Shown piece by piece: positions 2,678 to 25,658 of a stretch of 64,000 nucleotides of DNA (positions within the stretch are counted from its first letter, which is position 1; each line of letters begins with the position of its first letter). The stretch is from positions 229,616 to 293,615 of the forward strand of contig CAZEVT010000001.1 of assembly GCA_964515005.1 (NCBI GenBank), given 5' to 3'. Origin of the DNA: an uncultured Gammaproteobacteria bacterium (GTDB lineage: Bacteria; Patescibacteriota; Microgenomatia; UBA10105; UBA927). Made by a program: the position numbers and the translations under genes. Below the pieces are notes generated by a model. The model was given only the letters and a program-made list of their open reading frames with translations, was not told where the DNA came from and ran no database searches.

Positions 2678-5188
2678 TTGTTTTCGGCGCCCCTTTTTGC
2701 CATAATGCGAACGCATAGTTTGAGCCATATTATGAACGCCGCTGCCCCCCCACCACTGACAGACGAAAACGACTCTTTTCCGGTGGCACGTATTGATGCG
2801 CAGGACACCCCGTACGTATTACCGCTTCGGGAATTTTTGGAAACCAACGGGGTTCGGGTGTTTGTGAATGAAAACCCGAACAGAGATCCCTTGTATCACA
2901 TCGTGGTCGGAGAGGTTGATTTTGTGAAACATATCCTTTCACGACCGCGACAGTCGGAGGCAAAAAGGCTGGCAATTATAGTCGGACTTCCCACGGATGG
3001 CACCCTTGAAGAAGGCCTGCATGCAAAAATATATCTTGCGGATGCGGCGCCGATTTCCCCATCCGGTGCCTTTGACATATTTGAATTTTTCTTTACCGGG
3101 GAGAAGGCGGTACTTGACGGGCGAAAACAGACGTCAAAGACGACACGGGTTGCGCCTGAGATACCCGAGCCTCCCGACGAGGCGCGGGGAGACGATTCAG
3201 AGCGCATAGGCAACATTATTGCGGACGTGTTTGCAGCCGAGCCCAAGTCGCCTGCAAAAAAAGAGAAACCCCGACGCCGAAAAAAGCCGCACATGTTTTT
3301 CCGGGTGTTTGGTTTTGTGGCAACCATCGTGATTGTGTCAGTATTCTGGTATGGGGTGAGCCTCGGGGCCGGTACCGCGGCAATCGTGGCTGGAGCGCGG
3401 TCGCTTGAAAAAGGAGCGGAGGCGTCAGCGGGCTGGAAACTCTCGGCGGCAAGATACTGGACGAATCAGGCTCGATTCGTCCTTGGTGCCTGGTCTTTTC
3501 CCCTGACTTTTATTGGATTTGAGAAAAGCCTTCGGGGGCAAGAGCGGCTCATATCATTTCTCACGGATGCCGAGCGTGCAGTCTCGGAAATTCAGGCTGT
3601 GGCGGTAGCAGGGAAGCGTGTGGCTTCGGGACTATTAAATCAGGTGGATGTGACGAGTACCGGCACGACGCCCGCCTCAGACATCGGGGAACTTCGCACG
3701 TCTGTGATGAGTGCACAAAACACCTTGGGTTTGGCCCAGGCGCAGCTTGCGCTTCTTTTGGAAGAACGGACCTTTCCTTTTTCGCTCTCTCAGGTTGCCA
3801 ACCGAGGAACAGAGGCGGTACGCATGCTTTCGAGCCTCAGGATGCGTACCGCGGACATCGACCGCCTCCTGTCGCTTTTTTTACAACTGTCGGGATTTGG
3901 CAGCCCCAAAACCTACCTCATTCTTCTCCAAAACAGCATGGAGCTTCGGCCTACTGGTGGATTTATCGGTAGTGTTGCAATTGCGACGTTTGCAGACGGC
4001 CGTCTCACGAACCTGGACATTCAGGATGTCTACACGCTTGATGGCCAGCTGAAGGGCCACGTCGATCCACCCATACCCATTCGCGAGATTCTCGCTTCCG
4101 AACATTGGTATCTGCGGGATTCAAACTGGGATCCGAATTTTTTCGCCTCGGCCACGCGCGCCGCTTGGTTTTACCAGAAAGAAACCGGGTCCACGGTTGA
4201 CGGGGTATTTGCCGTCAACGTGCCGTTTGTGGCGCATCTGCTTGCGGCCACTGGGCCTGTTGATTTACCCGACTATGATGACCGGATTACGGCGGACAAT
4301 TTTTACGGAAAAGCCCTCTACTATACCCAGCAGGATTTTTTCCCAGGATCGACGCAGAAAAAAGATTTCCTCGGCAGCCTCGCCCGCGCGCTTATTGAAA
4401 AAACAACCACCGGCAAGGGGGTAAATTCTACGAGTCTTTTTGATGCAATCACCACGTCGCTTGCGGCGCACGACCTCCTTTTTATGCTTGAGAAGGATGA
4501 TCTTCAGGCGATGGTGGAACATTTTGGGTGGGCCGGGCGTGTGCCTTCAGTTTCCGGCTGTACAGGGAGCCCGGCGGGCTGTCGTTTTGATTCTCTGGCG
4601 ATTGTGGAAGCCAATCTGGGGGTCAACAAGGGAAGCTATTTCATCAAGCGATCTCTCGACCGGGACGTGACAGTAGACGCACAGGGGCTCATCCATGAGG
4701 CCGTTACCCTCAAGCTAACAAACACGAGCGGGGGAGACTCTTCGGTGCCGTACCGCGCGTATATTCGATTGGTGTTGCCGCAAGGCCATTCGATACGAGA
4801 GGTGAGCCTAAACGGATCCCCCTTAAAGTTCCGTGCGGTGGGGAAGGCCCCGAGCCTGCCATATATGGAGCGTAGTGACGCAGCGGCGCTGGGAATAGCG
4901 CTGGATATTGCTCCGGGAACAGAAAGCCGGCTTGTGGTTTCGTATGAGCTACAAGACCCGATCGTGTTTGGCCCGGCCGGCGCGGTATTGGAACTTTTTG
5001 ACCAAAAACAGCCGGGCGTAGACGGCGTGGCTGAACACGTGACTGTTTTGTATCCGTCGGATTGGACCGCAGGCGTGGAGGAAGGCGCGCTTGGGGCGGG
5101 CGAGGATTTTATTGCAAAAGAGGGAAAACTCGAGTACAATACGGTTCTTACCCGGGATGTGCTCACAAGAATTCGGCTGACTAGGTAG
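2678..5188 (+). CDS. Large membrane-anchored DUF4012-like surface protein (start codon uncertain: 2678, 2705 or 2732)
   Basis: 836 aa; Lys/Arg-rich stretch then a single TM (FFRVFGFVATIVIVSVFWYGV); RPTGGFIGS...DGQLKGHVDPP core resembles DUF4012. Confidence 0.5.
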   Translation: MFSAPLFAIMRTHSLSHIMNAAAPPPLTDENDSFPVARIDAQDTPYVLPLREFLETNGVRVFVNENPNRDPLYHIVVGEVDFVKHILSRPRQSEAKRLAIIVGLPTDGTLEEGLHAKIYLADAAPISPSGAFDIFEFFFTGEKAVLDGRKQTSKTTRVAPEIPEPPDEARGDDSERIGNIIADVFAAEPKSPAKKEKPRRRKKPHMFFRVFGFVATIVIVSVFWYGVSLGAGTAAIVAGARSLEKGAEASAGWKLSAARYWTNQARFVLGAWSFPLTFIGFEKSLRGQERLISFLTDAERAVSEIQAVAVAGKRVASGLLNQVDVTSTGTTPASDIGELRTSVMSAQNTLGLAQAQLALLLEERTFPFSLSQVANRGTEAVRMLSSLRMRTADIDRLLSLFLQLSGFGSPKTYLILLQNSMELRPTGGFIGSVAIATFADGRLTNLDIQDVYTLDGQLKGHVDPPIPIREILASEHWYLRDSNWDPNFFASATRAAWFYQKETGSTVDGVFAVNVPFVAHLLAATGPVDLPDYDDRITADNFYGKALYYTQQDFFPGSTQKKDFLGSLARALIEKTTTGKGVNSTSLFDAITTSLAAHDLLFMLEKDDLQAMVEHFGWAGRVPSVSGCTGSPAGCRFDSLAIVEANLGVNKGSYFIKRSLDRDVTVDAQGLIHEAVTLKLTNTSGGDSSVPYRAYIRLVLPQGHSIREVSLNGSPLKFRAVGKAPSLPYMERSDAAALGIALDIAPGTESRLVVSYELQDPIVFGPAGAVLELFDQKQPGVDGVAEHVTVLYPSDWTAGVEEGALGAGEDFIAKEGKLEYNTVLTRDVLTRIRLTR

Positions 5189-5197
5189 ACCCATTTT

Positions 5198-5911
5198 ATG
5201 AAAACACACGCGCTCGCGGCTCAAGTCCGCACCATGGTCGGCAGAAAAGTAAAAAACCTCAGGGCCCAGGGTCAGCTTCCCGGCACCGTCTACGGCAAAA
5301 AAGTCAAAAGCCTGTCCGTGACAGTAGCTCAAGACGCATTTGTAAAAGTCTACCGGGTAGCAGGGGAGACCGGAGTTGTCGAGTTGTCTGTGGATGGACA
5401 GGTTCGGCCTGTCCTTATCCACACCGTACAAAAAGATCCGGTCAAAGGGCAGATTCTTCACGTTGAATTTTATCAGGTAGACCTCAAGGAGAAGGTAACG
5501 ACCCGCGTACCGCTTGAATTTACGGGGGACGCGCCTGCGGTTGTCAATAAATTGGGCGTACTGTTGACGCTTCTTGACGAAGTGGAAGTGGAAGCGCTCC
5601 CGACGGATCTTCCGGAAAAGATTGCCGTTGATGTTTCTGGCCTTGCGGACGTTGATCAGGAAGTCAATGTATCAGGGCTTTCGGTGCCGTCTGGCGTCAC
5701 AATCCTCACCGATCCCGCGCAATCCGTTATTCGTGTGGGAGCGCTGGTGAGTAAACAAGCAGAAGCCCAGGCCGCAGAAGAGGCTGCAACCGCAGCAGCT
5801 GCCGCGGCAGAAGTGCCTCCCGAAGGCGCCCCAGCCAAGGAAGAAGGCGGGGAAGAAAAACCTGTGGAAGCGGCAGCTGTCAAAGCCGGAGAAGAGAAGA
5901 AAGTGGAGTAA
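5198..5911 (+). CDS. rplY: 50S ribosomal protein L25 / general stress protein Ctc, with Ala/Glu/Lys-rich C-terminal tail
   Basis: N-terminus LAAQVRTMVGRKVKNLRAQGQLPGTVYGK is typical of L25/Ctc; low-complexity acidic tail. Confidence 0.85.
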   Translation: MKTHALAAQVRTMVGRKVKNLRAQGQLPGTVYGKKVKSLSVTVAQDAFVKVYRVAGETGVVELSVDGQVRPVLIHTVQKDPVKGQILHVEFYQVDLKEKVTTRVPLEFTGDAPAVVNKLGVLLTLLDEVEVEALPTDLPEKIAVDVSGLADVDQEVNVSGLSVPSGVTILTDPAQSVIRVGALVSKQAEAQAAEEAATAAAAAAEVPPEGAPAKEEGGEEKPVEAAAVKAGEEKKVE

Positions 5912-5916
5912 TTCTT

Positions 5917-6456
5917 TTACTTAGTAGTCCTCGAAAGTATTTCCAGGATTTTCCCAATAGTTGGGTTATTCGGATCAATGGTTTGGGCCGCACGTACGTA
6001 CGATACTGCCTCATCTGTCTTCCCCAGCGTGTACAAAAGCGACGCCAGTTGGATATACCCGTCGCGGTAGTCCGGGTAGTTTTTGATAATTTGTTCCCAA
6101 TACTGACGGCGCTGTTCATCTTGGACTGGCGCATTCTGCCACATGGTAAAAAGATCATCCGGGGTCGTCGTAGTACCCAAAACTCTCGATTCAGGGATTT
6201 TTTGTGCATACAGCTCTTGGGAGATGGCAACCTCCTGCACTGCGGTTTGGCGGGCTCCCTGATTCCACAAGTCAACGGCAAGCGCCGCGTGTGGTTCCCA
6301 TGAGAACGGTTGGGAAAATATGGAAGAAAGCCTGCTCCCATAGGCCAGGGGGTAGTTTGCGATGGCAAACACGTTGACTGAAAGAAACGCCAAAAGCAGT
6401 ATCCAAAGGATAGCTGCGGAGAAAATTCGGGAAATGTGCGGTAATTTTAGCCTCAT
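5917..6456 (-). CDS. Membrane-anchored TPR-repeat protein
   Basis: N-terminal TM helix; C-terminal TPR-like helical repeat (YIQLASLLYTLGKTDEAVSYVRAAQTIDPNN). Confidence 0.45.
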   Translation of the reverse strand: MRLKLPHISRIFSAAILWILLLAFLSVNVFAIANYPLAYGSRLSSIFSQPFSWEPHAALAVDLWNQGARQTAVQEVAISQELYAQKIPESRVLGTTTTPDDLFTMWQNAPVQDEQRRQYWEQIIKNYPDYRDGYIQLASLLYTLGKTDEAVSYVRAAQTIDPNNPTIGKILEILSRTTK

Positions 6457-18423: not shown

Positions 18424-18745
18424 TGTTCTTTAGAAGAATCGCGGGGTAGTGTAGAGTAGCACAGAAGGCTCAATATGGGCCCGTCGATATGCAAGTATCG
18501 GATGAAAATTTGGCTGTATCGGTGAAACCCAGATCGGGCAATACCGAGGCAACCTCCGATTAATCGGAGAGAGTCCGTAGAGACTATACGCCAAACCCTC
18601 ACAATACAGTGAGGAGATGATATAGTCCGGCACTCCCAGGAATGGGAGAATAACAGAAAAGCATAATCTTCTAGACCAGGCGCGCCTCCTGGCCCCGCAA
18701 CCAAGACACAAAAAAGCGACCGGAAGGGTCGCTTTTTGTTTGATA
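18424..18745 (+). ncRNA. Candidate structured non-coding RNA (~320 nt) of unknown class
   Basis: Non-coding interval bounded by a plus-strand TTGTCG-17-TATAAT promoter (18390-18418) and a GC hairpin plus T-run terminator (18712-18745); many short perfect stem-loops, including a GGAA-capped one; no class could be assigned. Confidence 0.35.
18712..18745. terminator. Bidirectional intrinsic terminator (aaaaaaGCGACCggaaGGGTCGCtttttg)
   Basis: 6-bp GC stem with A-run upstream and T-run downstream; serves rbp (minus) and the plus-strand candidate RNA. Confidence 0.7.
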
Positions 18746-21607: not shown

Positions 21608-21957
21608 AAGCCTTAAACCGCGTGACCGGTCGCTCCGGAGAAGATGTTGCCGCCCGTACTCTTCAAGACAAGGGATATACAATTCTCGAGCGAAATTTTG
21701 GGAGTAAATTTGGGGAAATAGATATTATTGCGAAAGATAAAAACACCCTCGTGTTTGTGGAGGTGAAGGCAAAAACCGGAATTGCATTTGGATCACCGGA
21801 AGAGATGGTCGGGCGGGGTAAATTGCAGCGGATTCGCAACATGGCGACCATCTATATGAACGGTACGTCTGTCTCATGCCGCATCGACGTGGTCGCGATT
21901 GTTTTGGGTGACAATAACGAAGTTGTCAGACTTACACATTATGAGAATGTGACTTAA
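21604..21957 (+). CDS. yraN: YraN-family (UPF0102) endonuclease
   Basis: EIDIIAKDKNTLVFVEVKAK motif of the UPF0102/YraN PD-(D/E)xK family; ATGA overlap with comM stop. Confidence 0.7.
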   Translation: MKALNRVTGRSGEDVAARTLQDKGYTILERNFGSKFGEIDIIAKDKNTLVFVEVKAKTGIAFGSPEEMVGRGKLQRIRNMATIYMNGTSVSCRIDVVAIVLGDNNEVVRLTHYENVT

Positions 21958-22318
21958 GCCATGAAGCAATACTTTTGAGGTCGGGTTTTTGGTTGTCTAC
22001 ATGCACCATAAAGTCGGCCGCGTCGTGGGCTTTTGCCAATAGATGATAGTTGTTGATCCAAAGAAATCGCTTGGTTGCTGCCCACGCCGTCCTTTTATTT
22101 CCATCAGTAAATGGATGGTTCATACATAAGGATTGCAAGAGTGCGGCCGCCATGGCAAAAATAGTGGGGTAGAGGTTTCGCCCGCCGAATGTTGCCTTCG
22201 GTCGTTCAATAGCAGAATGAAGCAACGTAAAATCCCGAACAATAGCTTTTGTTTTCGCGCGAGCAATAATTGCCTCATGGATGGCATATACCTCTTCAAT
22301 ATCAATGAATGCGATCAT
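21932..22318 (-). CDS. doc: Doc (death-on-curing) Fic-fold toxin
   Basis: HPFTDGNKRTA Doc-type Fic motif; 128 aa; immediately downstream of its antitoxin. Confidence 0.75.
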   Translation of the reverse strand: MIAFIDIEEVYAIHEAIIARAKTKAIVRDFTLLHSAIERPKATFGGRNLYPTIFAMAAALLQSLCMNHPFTDGNKRTAWAATKRFLWINNYHLLAKAHDAADFMVHVDNQKPDLKSIASWLKSHSHNV

Positions 22319-22320
22319 GA

Positions 22321-22575
22321 TTATCGATGCGCGAGTTCATCAAGCAGATCAGCATCTTCCTTGAGAAAGCCCTCAAGCCACTCGTGAAATTCTTTTTCGG
22401 ATCGGGATGGTTTTTGAAAATCTTTTTTGATGCGACGAATGAGAAATCCGTCCGCGTCGGGAATATAATTAACCGATACTTTTTGTCCCCGCCGCCATTT
22501 TGCCTCCTGCATGAGGGGCGCAGCAAGAACAACAGCGTCGCTGTTTCCGAGTTGTGTAACCTTTGTGATTTGCAT
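22321..22575 (-). CDS. phd: AbrB/MazE/Phd-like antitoxin partnered with Doc
   Basis: 84 aa, N-terminal swapped-hairpin-like (VVLAAPLMQEAKWRRGQKVSV), acidic C-terminus; 3-nt gap to doc. Confidence 0.65.
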   Translation of the reverse strand: MQITKVTQLGNSDAVVLAAPLMQEAKWRRGQKVSVNYIPDADGFLIRRIKKDFQKPSRSEKEFHEWLEGFLKEDADLLDELAHR

Positions 22576-22632
22576 ATGTACGAACCATGTTAGTACATAT
22601 CGTTTGACATGTCAAGAGCTATGTGATATACT
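22576..22632. promoter_or_regulatory. Divergent promoter region: palindromic TTGACATGTCAA supplies a -35 for both strands; plus-strand -10 TATACT (22627-22632) drives the trpB2-trpS leader; minus-strand promoter plus TATGTAC/GTACATA inverted repeat serves phd-doc
   Basis: TTGACA at 22604-22609, 17-nt spacer, TATACT; inverted repeat tatgtac...gtacata at 22575-22600, a likely antitoxin operator. Confidence 0.6.
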
Positions 22633-22639
22633 TCTTATT

Positions 22640-22917
22640 ATCTTAATACAAGCCATGAGGGCGTGTGGATGGAACCCCTCAATCCGAAAGGAAGGCTGAC
22701 CATAATCAGGTACGGAGGCGAAACCGTAAAAAGTCTGTCAACATATGTCGCAATAAGCGGAGTATGTCATGAATGAGACTTTCTCATTGTTTTGACGCAC
22801 TCCCCGTAAGGGGAGTTTTTGTGTCAACTAACGGGGAAGCGAAGCAAGGTGGCAACACGGTCGGACCGTCCTTGCAAATTTCGATGGGAACATCGGGGTT
22901 TGCACGGGCGGTTTTTT
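22640..22917 (+). promoter_or_regulatory. T-box riboswitch leader, putatively tRNA-Trp responsive
   Basis: T-box-like sequence AAGCAAGGUGGCAACACGG (22842-22860); canonical antiterminator GCAAGG / 7-nt bulge UGGCAAC / ACGG-UCGGA-CCGU / CCUUGC; competing terminator CCGUCCUUGCAAA...UUUGCACGGGCGG plus U6 (22866-22917); stem III hairpin CUCCCCGUAAGGGGAG; candidate UGG specifier in GUGGAUGGAAC; RBS GGAAAGGAGG precedes the ATG at 22939. Confidence 0.6.
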
Positions 22918-22938
22918 GGTGGAAAGGAGGTGAAAATT

Positions 22939-24246
22939 ATGAAACTGAATAATTTAAGGCAAGTAGAGATTCCGACACATTATCTTAATCTTCTCTACTT
23001 TCTCAAAACGTATCTTGGGGAATTGCCAGCGCCGCCGCTTGATCCCAAGACGAAACAGCCGATTGGTCCGGATGCTTTGGCGCGGTTATTTCCGATGGAA
23101 CTTATCAAACAGGAAGTTTCATTGGATCGGGAAATTCCAATTCCTGAAGAGGTGAGAGAGTTATATAAAATATACCGTCCATCGCCGCTTTTACGGGCAC
23201 GACGTTTGGAGAATGTACTCGGAACGCCCGCGCATATTTATTTCAAATACGAAGGCGTTTCGCCGGTGGGGAGTCACAAGTTGAATACCGCTTTGGCGCA
23301 GGCATATTACAACAAGAAAGAAGGTGTCATGGGTTTGACGACGGAAACCGGTGCCGGCCAATGGGGGTCAGCGCTCGCGCTTGCATGCAAGTTGTTTGAC
23401 CTAAAGTGTCGGGTGTTTATGGTGCGGACGTCCTTTGACAACAAGCCGTACAGGAAAACGGTTATGAATATTTATGGCGCGCAGGTGGTCGCCAGTCCTT
23501 CTCACGAAACGGCAGCCGGACGGTCGTTTCTGAAAAAGGACCCAAAGACATCCGGAAGTTTAGGGATGGCGATTTCTGAGGCAATCGAAGTGGCTGTAAC
23601 GACACCCAAGACACATTATGCATTAGGGAGTGTCCTGAACCATGTGCTTTTGCACCAAACCATTATCGGTCAGGAAGCCAAAAAGCAAATGGAAAAGGAA
23701 GGCGTGTATCCTGATATTGTCATCGGTTGTTGCGGGGGTGGGAGTAATCTCGCCGGGATATCCTTTGCTTTTCTGGCAGATAAGATTGCCGGAAAGAAAA
23801 AGAGCTTGCGGGTGGTAGCCGTCGAACCTACGGCGTGTCCCACGCTAACTCGTGGTGAGTATCGATACGATTCGGGTGATACGGCGGGGATGACACCTCT
23901 CATGAAAATGTATACGGTAGGGAGCGATTTTGTGCCGTCACCAATACACGCAGGGGGTTTGCGATATCACGGTGATGCCCCGTTGATTTGTTTTTTGTAC
24001 CACAGGAAGCTCATCGAAGCGGTGGCATACGATCAGTTGTCGGTTTTTGAGGCGGCTGAGCTTTTTGCCCAAACTGAAGGCATTATCTCGGCTCCCGAGT
24101 CCGCGCATGCCATTAAGCACGTGATTGTTGAGGCACTCCGTGCCAAAAAAGAAGGGAAAAAGAAAACGATTCTTTTTAACCTTTCCGGGCACGGGCTTTT
24201 GGATTTGGGTGCATATGAAGAGTTTTTGGAGGGGCGGATGAAATAA
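22939..24246 (+). CDS. trpB: TrpB2-type tryptophan synthase beta-like PLP-dependent enzyme
   Basis: PLP-lysine motif VGSHKLNTA; glycine-rich loop GCCGGGSN; ~435 aa as in TrpB2 subfamily; no trpA in window. Confidence 0.8.
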   Translation: MKLNNLRQVEIPTHYLNLLYFLKTYLGELPAPPLDPKTKQPIGPDALARLFPMELIKQEVSLDREIPIPEEVRELYKIYRPSPLLRARRLENVLGTPAHIYFKYEGVSPVGSHKLNTALAQAYYNKKEGVMGLTTETGAGQWGSALALACKLFDLKCRVFMVRTSFDNKPYRKTVMNIYGAQVVASPSHETAAGRSFLKKDPKTSGSLGMAISEAIEVAVTTPKTHYALGSVLNHVLLHQTIIGQEAKKQMEKEGVYPDIVIGCCGGGSNLAGISFAFLADKIAGKKKSLRVVAVEPTACPTLTRGEYRYDSGDTAGMTPLMKMYTVGSDFVPSPIHAGGLRYHGDAPLICFLYHRKLIEAVAYDQLSVFEAAELFAQTEGIISAPESAHAIKHVIVEALRAKKEGKKKTILFNLSGHGLLDLGAYEEFLEGRMK

Positions 24247-24305
24247 TACGTAAATGCCGCCCCGCAAAATCTGCGGGGCGGCATGATAGAATGAAAGGAG
24301 AATCT

Positions 24306-25658
24306 ATGAAACGAATTTTGTCAGGTATTACACCAAGTGGGGACGGAAGCCTGCATATCGGCAACTATTTAGGTGCCGTCAGGCAGTTTAATGAGCTCGC
24401 AAAAACGCATGAGTGTTTTCTGATGGTTGCCGATCTTCACGCACTTACCACCATTCAGGACAAAGCCATGCTTCAAAAAAATACCGAGACACTGATTCTC
24501 AACGAACTTGCGCTTCTTGGTGATTTGAAAAATATTACGTTTTTCCGGCAGTCCGATGTGCCGGCGCACACGGAACTGCAATCCATTCTCAACAACGTCA
24601 CGCCGCTTGGGCTTCTGAAACGGGCCCATGCGTATAAAGATAAACTCGGGAAAGACGTGATGGTGGATGATATTAACGTGGGACTCTTCAGTTACCCCAT
24701 GCTTATGGCGGCAGATATACTCCTCTACAAACCCGACCTCGTGCCGGTGGGGAAGGACCAGAAGCAGCATATTGAAATAACCCGCGATATCGCCCAGCGG
24801 TTTAACAAGATTTTCAAGAAAAATGTTTTTAAACTTCCTGACCCATACATCCCGGAAGAGGTCGCCGTTATTTCGGGAACTGACGGCAAACGGAAAATGA
24901 GCAAATCATTGGGGAACATCATCAGCATCTTTGAAAACGAAGAAATTATTCGCAAACAAGTCAACAGTACGTACACCGATCCGACCAGGAAACACGCAAG
25001 CGACCCCGGACACATTGAGGGGAACATGGTGTTCGCGTATCTTGAATTTTTCGGCGAAAAGGCCAAAAATGGCCAGTTGAAAGAGTTCTATACAAAAGGC
25101 CAAGTATCAGATGTTGAGGTAAAAAAGTATTTATTCGATTCTTTGATGAAAACATTCAAAAATGCCCGCGCGCGGTACGCGGATTTGGTTGCTCACCCCG
25201 AAAAAGTCAAAAAGATTTTGGAAGAGGGAGCGGCAAAAGCAAGAGCGGTTGCGGGGGTCACTACGAGTGAAGTACGGGAGGCAATAGGGTTAGTCAATAG
25301 CTATTCCATAGGAGCGGTTGGTCAGTCCTCGACCATAACGATTGATGAATTTACGCGTATGGAAATGCGGGTGGGGAAGGTGCTCGAGGCAACGAATAAA
25401 GAGGGGAGTGACAAACTTATTCGTCTACTGGTAGATGTAGGAGAACAAAAGTCTCGCGTAATATTTACCGGCGTCCGGCCTTTTGGTTACACTCCTGAAT
25501 TTTTCGCGGGTAAGCAGTTTTTCTTTATTACTAATCTCGCGCCTCGCCGCATGATGAATGAGGAGTCCCAAGGCATGATTATGGCCGTTGATGGCCCAGA
25601 CGGTAAACCGCTGTTTATATCCGCGGACGATATGCCGGTGGGTGCAAAGATACGATAA
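24306..25658 (+). CDS. trpS: Tryptophanyl-tRNA synthetase fused to a C-terminal OB-fold tRNA-binding (Myf/EMAP-like) domain
   Basis: Class I motifs GDGSLHIGNY (HIGH-type) and KMSKS; ~330-aa TrpRS core; ~115-aa C-terminal extension RMEMRVGKVLEATN...FFFITNL resembling the MetRS-C/CsaA tRNA-binding domain. Confidence 0.9.
   Translation: MKRILSGITPSGDGSLHIGNYLGAVRQFNELAKTHECFLMVADLHALTTIQDKAMLQKNTETLILNELALLGDLKNITFFRQSDVPAHTELQSILNNVTPLGLLKRAHAYKDKLGKDVMVDDINVGLFSYPMLMAADILLYKPDLVPVGKDQKQHIEITRDIAQRFNKIFKKNVFKLPDPYIPEEVAVISGTDGKRKMSKSLGNIISIFENEEIIRKQVNSTYTDPTRKHASDPGHIEGNMVFAYLEFFGEKAKNGQLKEFYTKGQVSDVEVKKYLFDSLMKTFKNARARYADLVAHPEKVKKILEEGAAKARAVAGVTTSEVREAIGLVNSYSIGAVGQSSTITIDEFTRMEMRVGKVLEATNKEGSDKLIRLLVDVGEQKSRVIFTGVRPFGYTPEFFAGKQFFFITNLAPRRMMNEESQGMIMAVDGPDGKPLFISADDMPVGAKIR

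Follow-up and report, generated by a model that had tools for sequence, protein, structure and literature searches.

The DNA analysed here is a 64-kb window (64,000 nucleotides of contig CAZEVT010000001.1; all coordinates are positions within it) from a genome of the Candidate Phyla Radiation (CPR, Patescibacteria). The element under study is the leader at 22604-22941 on the + strand, which precedes the trpB2 and trpS genes (Table 1). A sequence-only reading of this region had described a T-box-type leader upstream of a TrpB2-like enzyme and a tryptophanyl-tRNA synthetase (TrpRS). The promoter, T-box core, antiterminator, terminator and ribosome-binding site (RBS) were all found where that reading had placed them, and protein families bore out both gene assignments: the first gene product matched NF009057 with 692 bits (cut-off 366) and the second TIGR00233 with 294 bits (cut-off 177). 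The closest named relatives of the two proteins come from Candidatus Gottesmanbacteria and Microgenomates metagenome-assembled genomes (MAGs). TrpB2 is established as the indole-scavenging beta-2 protein (PMC2700814); it is therefore reasonable to read the trpB2-trpS operon as an indole salvage plus charging module. Judged from sequence, folding and covariation, transcription of this operon is very probably controlled by a T-box riboswitch that would respond to tRNA-Trp by antitermination.

The promoter matches the sigma-70 consensus at 11 of 12 positions and carries in addition a TG extended -10 motif. Counted as a class, promoter-like sites are not enriched in the region (7 found, 4.5 +/- 2.1 expected); a TGnTATA -10 box is, however, kept at the same place across the alignment of related leaders described below. 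About 300 nt of leader separate the promoter from trpB2. When the leader was cut before the 3' strand of the terminator, minimum free energy (MFE) folding returned the antiterminator exactly as it had been drawn in the earlier reading, with an MFE of -12.4 kcal/mol for the isolated segment. The terminator uses the 3' strands of both antiterminator helices, A1 and A2, and the two structures are therefore mutually exclusive; the RBS lies outside the terminator, which places the control at transcription. The whole leader folded far better than shuffled sequences (z = -5.98, none of 200 as good), and its MFE structure includes the terminator.

The same arrangement was observed throughout the family of related leaders. 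Helix A1 measures 5-6 bp in 77 of 79 of them, A2 covaries (GCCU/AGGC, ACGG/CCGU, GUCC/GGGC, GCGG/CCGC), and the bulge between them is always UGGNANN, the UGGCAAC of the window recurring in 11 leaders. Family terminators range from -19 to -47 kcal/mol, and in at least 62 of the 79 leaders the terminator ties up 4 nt or more of the A1 3' strand, most of the others being cut by the limit set on the U-run in this count.

Table 1. Elements of the leader and the genes downstream of it (window positions).
Feature	Position	Strand	Sequence or pairing	Basis or remark
Sigma-70-type promoter	22604-22632	+	-35 TTGACA 22604-22609; 17-nt spacer; -10 TATACT 22627-22632	
Truncated stem I	22651-22697	+		covariation of P1 and upper helix; reproduced by window MFE fold
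Stem I basal helix P1	22651-54 / 22694-97	+	AGCC / GGCU	covariation
Stem I upper helix	22657-63 / 22675-80	+		covariation
Stem I terminal specifier loop	22664-74	+		MFE fold
Specifier codon and purine	22670-72; A22673	+	UGG + A; GUGGAUGGAAC	3' end of stem I terminal loop
Extra hairpin	22683-92	+	UCC-GAAA-GGA	makes a three-way junction at the stem I base in the window's sub-lineage
Mini-hairpin P2, at the canonical place of stem II	22699-22711	+	ACC 22699-701 / GGU 22709-11	covariation; Rfam alignment
Stem IIA/B pseudoknot with F-box-like CCGUAA	22712-22739	+	ACGGAGGCGAAACCGUAA	aligns to RF00230 IIA/B
Stem IIA	22712-15 / 22724-27	+	ACGG / CCGU	Rfam alignment
Stem IIB pair	22718 / 22739	+	G-C	covariation
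Inserted central hairpin	22742-22766	+	CAUAU-G-UCGC / GCGG-A-GUAUG	RNAalifold; absent from RF00230 (treated as insertion)
Conserved purine-rich linker	22768-22778	+	CAUGAAUGAGA	homologue of the AAAGUG purines that precede stem III in canonical T-boxes
Extended stem III	22779-22839	+	basal 22779-85 / 22833-39 and 22792-98 / 22821-27	
Stem III apical hairpin	22799-22816	+		followed by U4 bulge 22817-20
T-box sequence	22842-22860	+	AAGCAAGGUGGCAACACGG	sequence
T-box antiterminator domain	22842-22876	+		fold and family covariation
Antiterminator helix A1	22844-49 / 22870-75	+	GCAAGG / CCUUGC	MFE fold
Antiterminator bulge, 7 nt	22850-56	+	UGGCAAC	UGGC 22850-53, predicted tRNA 3'-end pairing site
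Antiterminator helix A2	22857-61 / 22865-69	+	ACGGU / ACCGU	MFE fold
Intrinsic terminator hairpin	22863-22911	+	U6 at 22912-17	-34.1 kcal/mol (isolated segment)
RBS	22921-22930	+	GGAAAGGAGG	sequence
trpB2 start codon	22939-22941	+	ATG	sequence
TrpB-like pyridoxal phosphate enzyme (TrpB2)	22939-24246	+		PALP; NF009057
Tryptophan-tRNA ligase (trpS) with C-terminal MetG-C-like tRNA-binding domain	24291-25658	+		TIGR00233

Related leaders and covariation

Trp T-boxes on trpB2 are not unusual in themselves. A protein-based scan of species-representative genomes yielded 80 trpB2 loci, and in Chloroflexota, Actinomycetota, Thermoanaerobacterium and some CPR a UGGC T-box core lies 100-250 nt before trpB2. 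Three of the non-CPR elements passed the threshold of the Rfam T-box model RF00230 (Chloroflexota L010, 109 bits; Thermoanaerobacterium L064, 110 bits; Actinomycetota L077, 127 bits). In contigs carrying close relatives of the window's TrpB2, its whole leader is conserved. Metagenomes were then scanned with the most conserved 20-nt block of the leader (ACGGAGNCGAAACCGTAAANAG), which gave 109 stretches and, from these, 84 unique complete leaders, from CPR metagenomes and MAGs that include Gottesmanbacteria and Gribaldobacteria.

In family members free of insertions, the 5' half of the leader consists of a 3-bp P1, an internal loop resembling a kink-turn (K-turn), an upper helix of 4-6 bp, a loop of 8-11 nt ending in UGG-R, a P2 of 3-4 bp and stem IIA with CCGUAA. 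Pairing was counted in two alignments, and since the sequences are related and most were selected by the pattern, the shuffled values are not to be read as probabilities. In a seed of 19 insertion-free relatives 92.1% of cells were paired, against 73.2% after shuffling and 12-34% with partners slid, and double-sided changes were found at 13 of 19 pairs. The corresponding values for a 79-sequence Infernal alignment, which is fitted to the model and leans towards the modelled structure, were 94.7%, 70.2% and 23-39%, with double-sided changes at 14 of 17 pairs and covariation in all the variable helices. A MAFFT alignment of the 5' module was not used for pair counting, as it splits the 3' strand of stem I around insertions and mis-registers the loops of Pro-linked leaders.

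The covariance model built from the seed (R1) found a single match in the whole 64-kb window, at 22645-22748 (54 bits, E ~5e-13). It also found the leaders of L002, L003 (Gottesmanbacteria) and L013 (Gribaldobacteria), of which L002 and L013 had not been selected by the pattern. It did not match the canonical T-boxes of other phyla.

Stem I has a clear K-turn at its base in insertion-free relatives (NGC-GUU-GA...GA-GCN'). The window retains GCC-AU-GA on the 5' side, the AUGA after P1 occupying the position of the K-turn 5' strand of relatives, and a 12-nt insert that forms the extra hairpin interrupts the 3' side. A pseudoknot seen by eye, in which UGAU of the stem I base would pair with AUCA in the P2 loop, was set aside, the K-turn explaining the GA. 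P2 covaries at all four of its pairs and is 99% paired in the 79-sequence alignment. No S-turn consensus was recognisable in P2, and the GAA/AGUA positions of RF00230 are deleted in the Rfam alignment; an equivalent of the S-turn may lie elsewhere, for example in the inserted hairpin. The IIB pair joins the loop of IIA to the base 6 nt before an invariant UGU: it is G-C in 59 leaders, C-G in 19, G-U in 1 and another combination in 5 (78 of 84 Watson-Crick), and neighbouring control positions show no such switch.

The central hairpin was predicted independently by RNAalifold, with compensatory changes at 6 pairs. Its core of U.G, G.A and U.G is invariant inside helices that otherwise covary, and one may speculate that this core makes a contact compensating for missing tRNA contacts. 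The long-range duplex of stem III comprises 17 bp in the window (-16.6 kcal/mol, equalled by 2 of 200 shuffles), and across the family its median energy is -10.8 kcal/mol, against -5.1 kcal/mol for shuffled sequences. A hairpin UGAGA/UCUCA ('Pc') competes with the basal helix of stem III; both pairings are possible, and Rfam homology, which places the basal helix as stem III, together with the duplex statistics favours the latter. The 'stem III hairpin' of the sequence-only reading is real, but it forms just the tip of a stem III that is longer and interrupted.

Three siblings have features of their own. In L083 (1672-1786) the region from stem I to the T-box core is kept, the terminator and the tRNA gene have been lost by deletion, and the leader is fused to the GGGAAUACUGGCG motif described below. 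At 4640-4885 (-), L169 has another leader with a UGG-type stem I (R1, 32 bits), which continues through a stem III-like hairpin with a U-run directly into a second tRNA-Trp gene; no T-box core or terminator was recognisable in it. L115 has the same scaffold with the loop AUUGAAU, together with an open reading frame (ORF) of 84 amino acids without assignment.

Specifier, discriminator and tRNA genes

The 3' end of the stem I loop carries UGG-R in leaders that precede tRNA-Trp, trpB2, trpS or trpE. Four leaders of the same scaffold precede genes for prolyl-tRNA synthetase and/or pyrroline-5-carboxylate reductase (Pfam), and three of them carry CCG-R at the loop 3' end together with a UGGU bulge; in the fourth, L180, CCG stands directly against the closing helix and its register is ambiguous. 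No cross case was observed at the loop 3' end: CCG was found in none of the Trp-linked leaders and UGG in none of the Pro-linked ones. Only this exclusivity is treated as robust. Automatic parsing of the specifier was abandoned: a greedy hairpin finder and the first MFE hairpin each picked the wrong stem in about 25 of 79 leaders, and strict Infernal columns suffered from register shifts of +/-1 and from mis-pairing with insertion hairpins. Sibling leaders with a CCG specifier and a UGGU bulge, linked to proC and/or proS, were seen in L091, L093, L102, L109 and L180, some of them preceded by small unannotated ORFs.

In about 27 unique leaders that are followed by a tRNA-Trp gene, the bulge could be compared with the discriminator base of the tRNA. 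UGGC stands beside G73 in 15 leaders and beside A73 in none, and UGGU beside G73 in 4 and beside A73 in 8; four discriminators in these counts were re-read by inspection, the acceptor stem GGGUAAG/CUUUCCC holding one U.U mismatch. The near-identical leader L092 has a UGGC bulge beside a G73 tRNA-Trp. The Trp specificity proposed earlier is thus upheld on both sides, by the conserved UGG specifier and by the agreement of UGGC with G73 tRNA-Trp genes beside sibling leaders. In the window, UGG 22670-72 is predicted to pair with the anticodon CCA of tRNA-Trp, and UGGC 22850-53 would pair with its 3' end G73-C-C-A.

A tRNA-Trp(CCA) gene follows the terminator within ~5-40 nt in L084 (1934-2006), L085 (2326-2397), L002 (1930-2003), L092 (813-884) and about 20 further loci, with trpB2 and/or trpS behind it; there is none in the window. 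The CCA end is mostly not encoded in these T-box-adjacent genes. Apart from the leader's own, no promoter-like site on the plus strand precedes the tRNA-Trp gene of L084. In such relatives the riboswitch may control the gene of its own ligand, and tRNA-Trp, TrpRS and TrpB2 may form a positive feedback loop in sister genomes.

Other genes and motifs were also found downstream of family leaders. A gene of the Asp/Glu/hydantoin-racemase family lies between trpB2 and trpS in L083 (3160-3864) and L084 (3875-4567) and is the first ORF after a UGG-type leader in L097 and L120, which suggests a Trp-related role. UGG leaders are also followed by a DIT1/PvcA-like gene (L142) and by ORFs without Pfam match (L104, L105, L173). 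A second motif, GGGAAUACUGGCG (GGGGA...CUGGCG in other CPR lineages), occurs 40-70 nt upstream of the trpB2 start and downstream of the T-box or tRNA; it was seen at L083:1724-1760, L085 ~2420-2460, L087 ~2430-2470, L002:2440-2455 and L003:2435-2450, with variants at L013:2434-2452 and L024:1646-1664. It matched no Rfam family at threshold, and GGGAATACTGGCG does not occur in the window, whose matches stay at chance level. The motif could be a second regulatory element.

Comparison with known T-boxes and alternative explanations

At its gathering threshold RF00230 matched nothing in the window nor in 23 other family loci, and no other Rfam family matched the leader region. The sub-threshold alignment of the window covers one hairpin, the T-box core and the antiterminator, most of stem I being deleted. 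In the sibling L003 (17.6 bits) the K-turn base, IIA/B with the F-box, the purine linker, stem III and the T-box core were aligned colinearly, and the K-turn base of the model (AAGCGaUGA...GGA-GC) is matched almost perfectly. The 75 model positions that separate one side of the specifier loop from the other and hold the S-turn, AG bulge and distal loop are reduced to 9 nt in L003, and model stem II with its GAA/AGUA S-turn has collapsed to P2. ACGG...CCGUAA aligns to IIA/B and the F-box of the model (canonical L010, ACGGAGUGggCACCGUUA), the purines before stem III correspond to AAGAAUGAG in the family, and model stem III corresponds to the long-range helix, of which the apical hairpin is an extension. 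The central hairpin is an insertion without counterpart in the model; L010 also has an insertion at this site. These large deletions and insertions therefore account for the low score, and the element is still a true T-box homologue. That the leader is of the T-box antiterminator/terminator type is thus supported by exclusive folds, by covariation and by the RF00230 alignment of its 3' half.

Compared with canonical class I T-boxes (RF00230; the Firmicutes Trp elements, L010, L064 and L077), the family has the same elements in the same order: a K-turn-type stem I base (in insertion-free relatives), a specifier plus purine by the closing helix, IIA/B with the F-box, the purine linker, stem III, a 7-nt UGGN bulge flanked by A1 and A2, and a terminator that competes with the antiterminator. 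The target genes are of the same kind, and the logic would likewise be readthrough upon binding of uncharged tRNA. In contrast, the family has nothing above the specifier loop, that is, no stem I S-turn and none of the AG bulge and distal loop that make up the elbow-binding platform (IDTM). In addition, its stem II is a hairpin of 3-4 bp, IIA/B is followed by an extra hairpin, a long stem III carries an apical extension, and the bulge in the window is UGGCAAC instead of UGGNACC. The leader had been called complete and textbook; this is an overstatement, as it lacks the distal platform of stem I and a recognisable S-turn in stem II.

Truncated stem I T-boxes are found on ileS in actinobacteria; those of Mycobacterium tuberculosis and Nocardia farcinica were reportedly described by Sherwood et al. 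in 2015 (cited in PMC7583486). Compared by features, these ultrashort or intermediate stem I elements resemble the CPR family in having the specifier at or near the tip of a truncated stem I, no elbow platform and a retained IIA/B. They differ in being translational, with a Shine-Dalgarno sequestrator, a long stem II with S-turn and Ile specificity, whereas the CPR family has a U-tract terminator, no recognisable S-turn, and Trp or Pro specifiers. Actinobacterial T-boxes with truncated stem I were first noted in PMC1262725, and the 'intermediate' or 'ultrashort' stem I lacking the IDTM typifies translational T-boxes, mostly of actinobacterial ileS (PMC7583486). The T-boxes of the glyQS type naturally lack the stem II domain, so that T-box function without stem II and its S-turn is possible; glyQS elements nevertheless keep a long stem I with IDTM and a G/C-rich codon-anticodon pair, whereas CPR leaders lack the IDTM and have IIA/B. 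In the CPR family a truncated stem I occurs together with a terminator, and no S-turn is recognisable. The class I set of TBDB derives from RF00230, its short-stem-I model having been run only on Actinobacteria and on RF00230 hits (PMC7778990), and it would therefore miss the CPR leaders. A full-text literature search of limited scope returned no report of T-boxes in CPR/Patescibacteria, in agreement with the claim that they are rare or undocumented there; nor did it return anything relevant on T-boxes from metagenomes, ahead of tRNA genes or on trpB2.

The proposed mechanism is as follows. RNA polymerase would start ~7 nt after the -10 box, and the nascent leader would fold its short stem I, the terminal loop offering UGG-A (22670-73) to the anticodon CCA of tRNA-Trp. 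The IIA/B pseudoknot, the inserted hairpin and the long stem III would position the 3' discriminator domain. If the tRNA is uncharged, its 3' end G73-C-C-A would pair with UGGC 22850-53 and stabilise the weak antiterminator, and polymerase would read through; with charged or absent tRNA the far more stable terminator would form and transcription would stop at U22912-17. We infer that the leader would bind tRNA and discriminate its charge, that the CPR polymerase would terminate at the hairpin, and that affinity for tRNA would be achieved without elbow platform and S-turn.

Several observations weigh against this interpretation. First, the IDTM has been called essential in transcriptional T-boxes and the stem II S-turn essential in the known T-boxes with truncated stem I (PMC7583486); the former is absent from the window leader and none of the latter is recognisable in it. 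Second, the RF00230 search proposed in the sequence-only reading gave 18.0 bits, against a gathering threshold of 93 (E = 0.062 on 401 nt, permissive filters), which is not a significant match, and distal stem I elements were not found; a conserved, covarying stem I with a specifier loop is present, with a K-turn in many relatives. Third, the stem I base of the window is a three-way-junction variant, so that a K-turn cannot be asserted in the window itself. Fourth, the organism's own tRNA-Trp gene does not lie within the 64-kb window. Finally, the exact 20-nt search pattern fixed IIA, which makes its invariance uninformative, and the sequences are phylogenetically related. 

It is conceivable that the leader is a relic derived from a T-box, which lost its response to tRNA together with the elbow platform and the S-turn and now acts as a constitutive partial terminator or under protein control. 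Both the IDTM and the stem II S-turn are indeed lost, the mutational data summarised in PMC7583486 indicate that both matter, and L083 has lost its terminator altogether. A relic would not, however, be expected to keep its specifier matched to gene identity (UGG or CCG), its bulge base matched to the tRNA discriminator, and compensatory changes in every variable helix across ~80 diverged leaders; we consider this explanation unlikely.

A second explanation is that the leader is a canonical T-box with a long stem I, whose platform and S-turn are too diverged or rearranged for RF00230 and the alignments. Equivalent contacts could in that case come from elsewhere in the leader, namely from the inserted hairpin (22742-66) and the purine strand, neither of which has an assigned role. 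This is nevertheless very improbable: the covarying P1 closes it over 47 nt in the window and ~33 nt in insertion-free relatives, the specifier stands in a terminal loop of 8-11 nt, which leaves no room for a distal domain, and RF00230 deletes 75 stem I positions.

Since the known T-boxes with truncated stem I act on translation (PMC7583486, PMC1262725), translational control, or a small-molecule ligand as in a Trp-binding riboswitch, was considered in place of tRNA-dependent control of transcription. The position of the RBS downstream of and outside the terminator, the hairpin with U-tail in at least 62 of 79 leaders, and the lack of a match to any other Rfam family make this extremely improbable. 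Ribosome-mediated attenuation through a leader peptide is scarcely credible: a short ORF with one UGG in frame does run from AUG 22655 to UGA 22699 in the window, but it lacks a Shine-Dalgarno sequence and holds just one Trp codon, most relatives do not have the AUG (for example AAGCGUUGAUCCGG in L003 and L083-85), and helix covariation, not codon conservation, explains the region. GAG/UAG repeats of the TRAP type were not seen on reading the leader sequence.

A T-box riboswitch responding to tRNA-Trp thus remains the preferred explanation. We propose more tentatively, with somewhat less than even confidence, that a class of minimal transcriptional T-boxes, as yet undescribed, is proper to CPR bacteria and would recognise tRNA without elbow platform and without stem II S-turn. 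The inserted hairpin, which is specific to the family, and the extended stem III may make up for the missing affinity; leader and terminator of this putative class stand directly before a tRNA-Trp gene in many sister genomes.

Neighbouring features and biological meaning

The -35 TTGACA of the leader promoter lies inside a perfect palindrome, TTGACATGTCAA, which also yields a promoter-like site on the minus strand (22587-22615, 10 of 12 matches). It is directed at a small ORF and a gene of the Fic/DOC family (21932-22575, -), which are likely a toxin-antitoxin pair; the T-box operon and the Fic/DOC unit may share a divergent promoter region. The TrpRS of the window is fused to a MetG-C/Trbp111-like tRNA-binding domain, which forms a separate downstream ORF in L087 (region 4836-6223), L120 and others. 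Elsewhere in the window, within 18442-18707 (+), a group I intron was found at 18461-18649 (Rfam 58.8 bits). It appears to split a tRNA(CAU)-like gene in its anticodon loop, with GCGGGGU...GGCUCA and ...UAAUCUUC...CCCCGCA flanking the intron; ARAGORN made no call for this tRNA. Group I introns also lie close to the sibling leaders in L103, L152 and L169.

T-boxes are the textbook riboswitches for sensing tRNA. On current structural understanding, transcriptional T-boxes need to capture tRNA rapidly and bivalently, through the anticodon and the elbow, and versions with a truncated stem I rely on the stem II S-turn. This generalisation is challenged by a large family of covarying leaders that have a terminator but neither the elbow platform nor a recognisable S-turn; at ~230 nt, they also give structural biology and engineering a natural minimal scaffold. 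Annotation based on RF00230, and the databases derived from it, systematically miss the CPR leaders. CPR genomes, usually called regulation-poor, would use RNA-based sensing of Trp and Pro, as their leaders suggest. The leader is tied to an indole-salvage enzyme and TrpRS, and that of relatives also to the tRNA-Trp gene, which is relevant to the way in which these symbiont-like organisms manage a scavenged amino acid.

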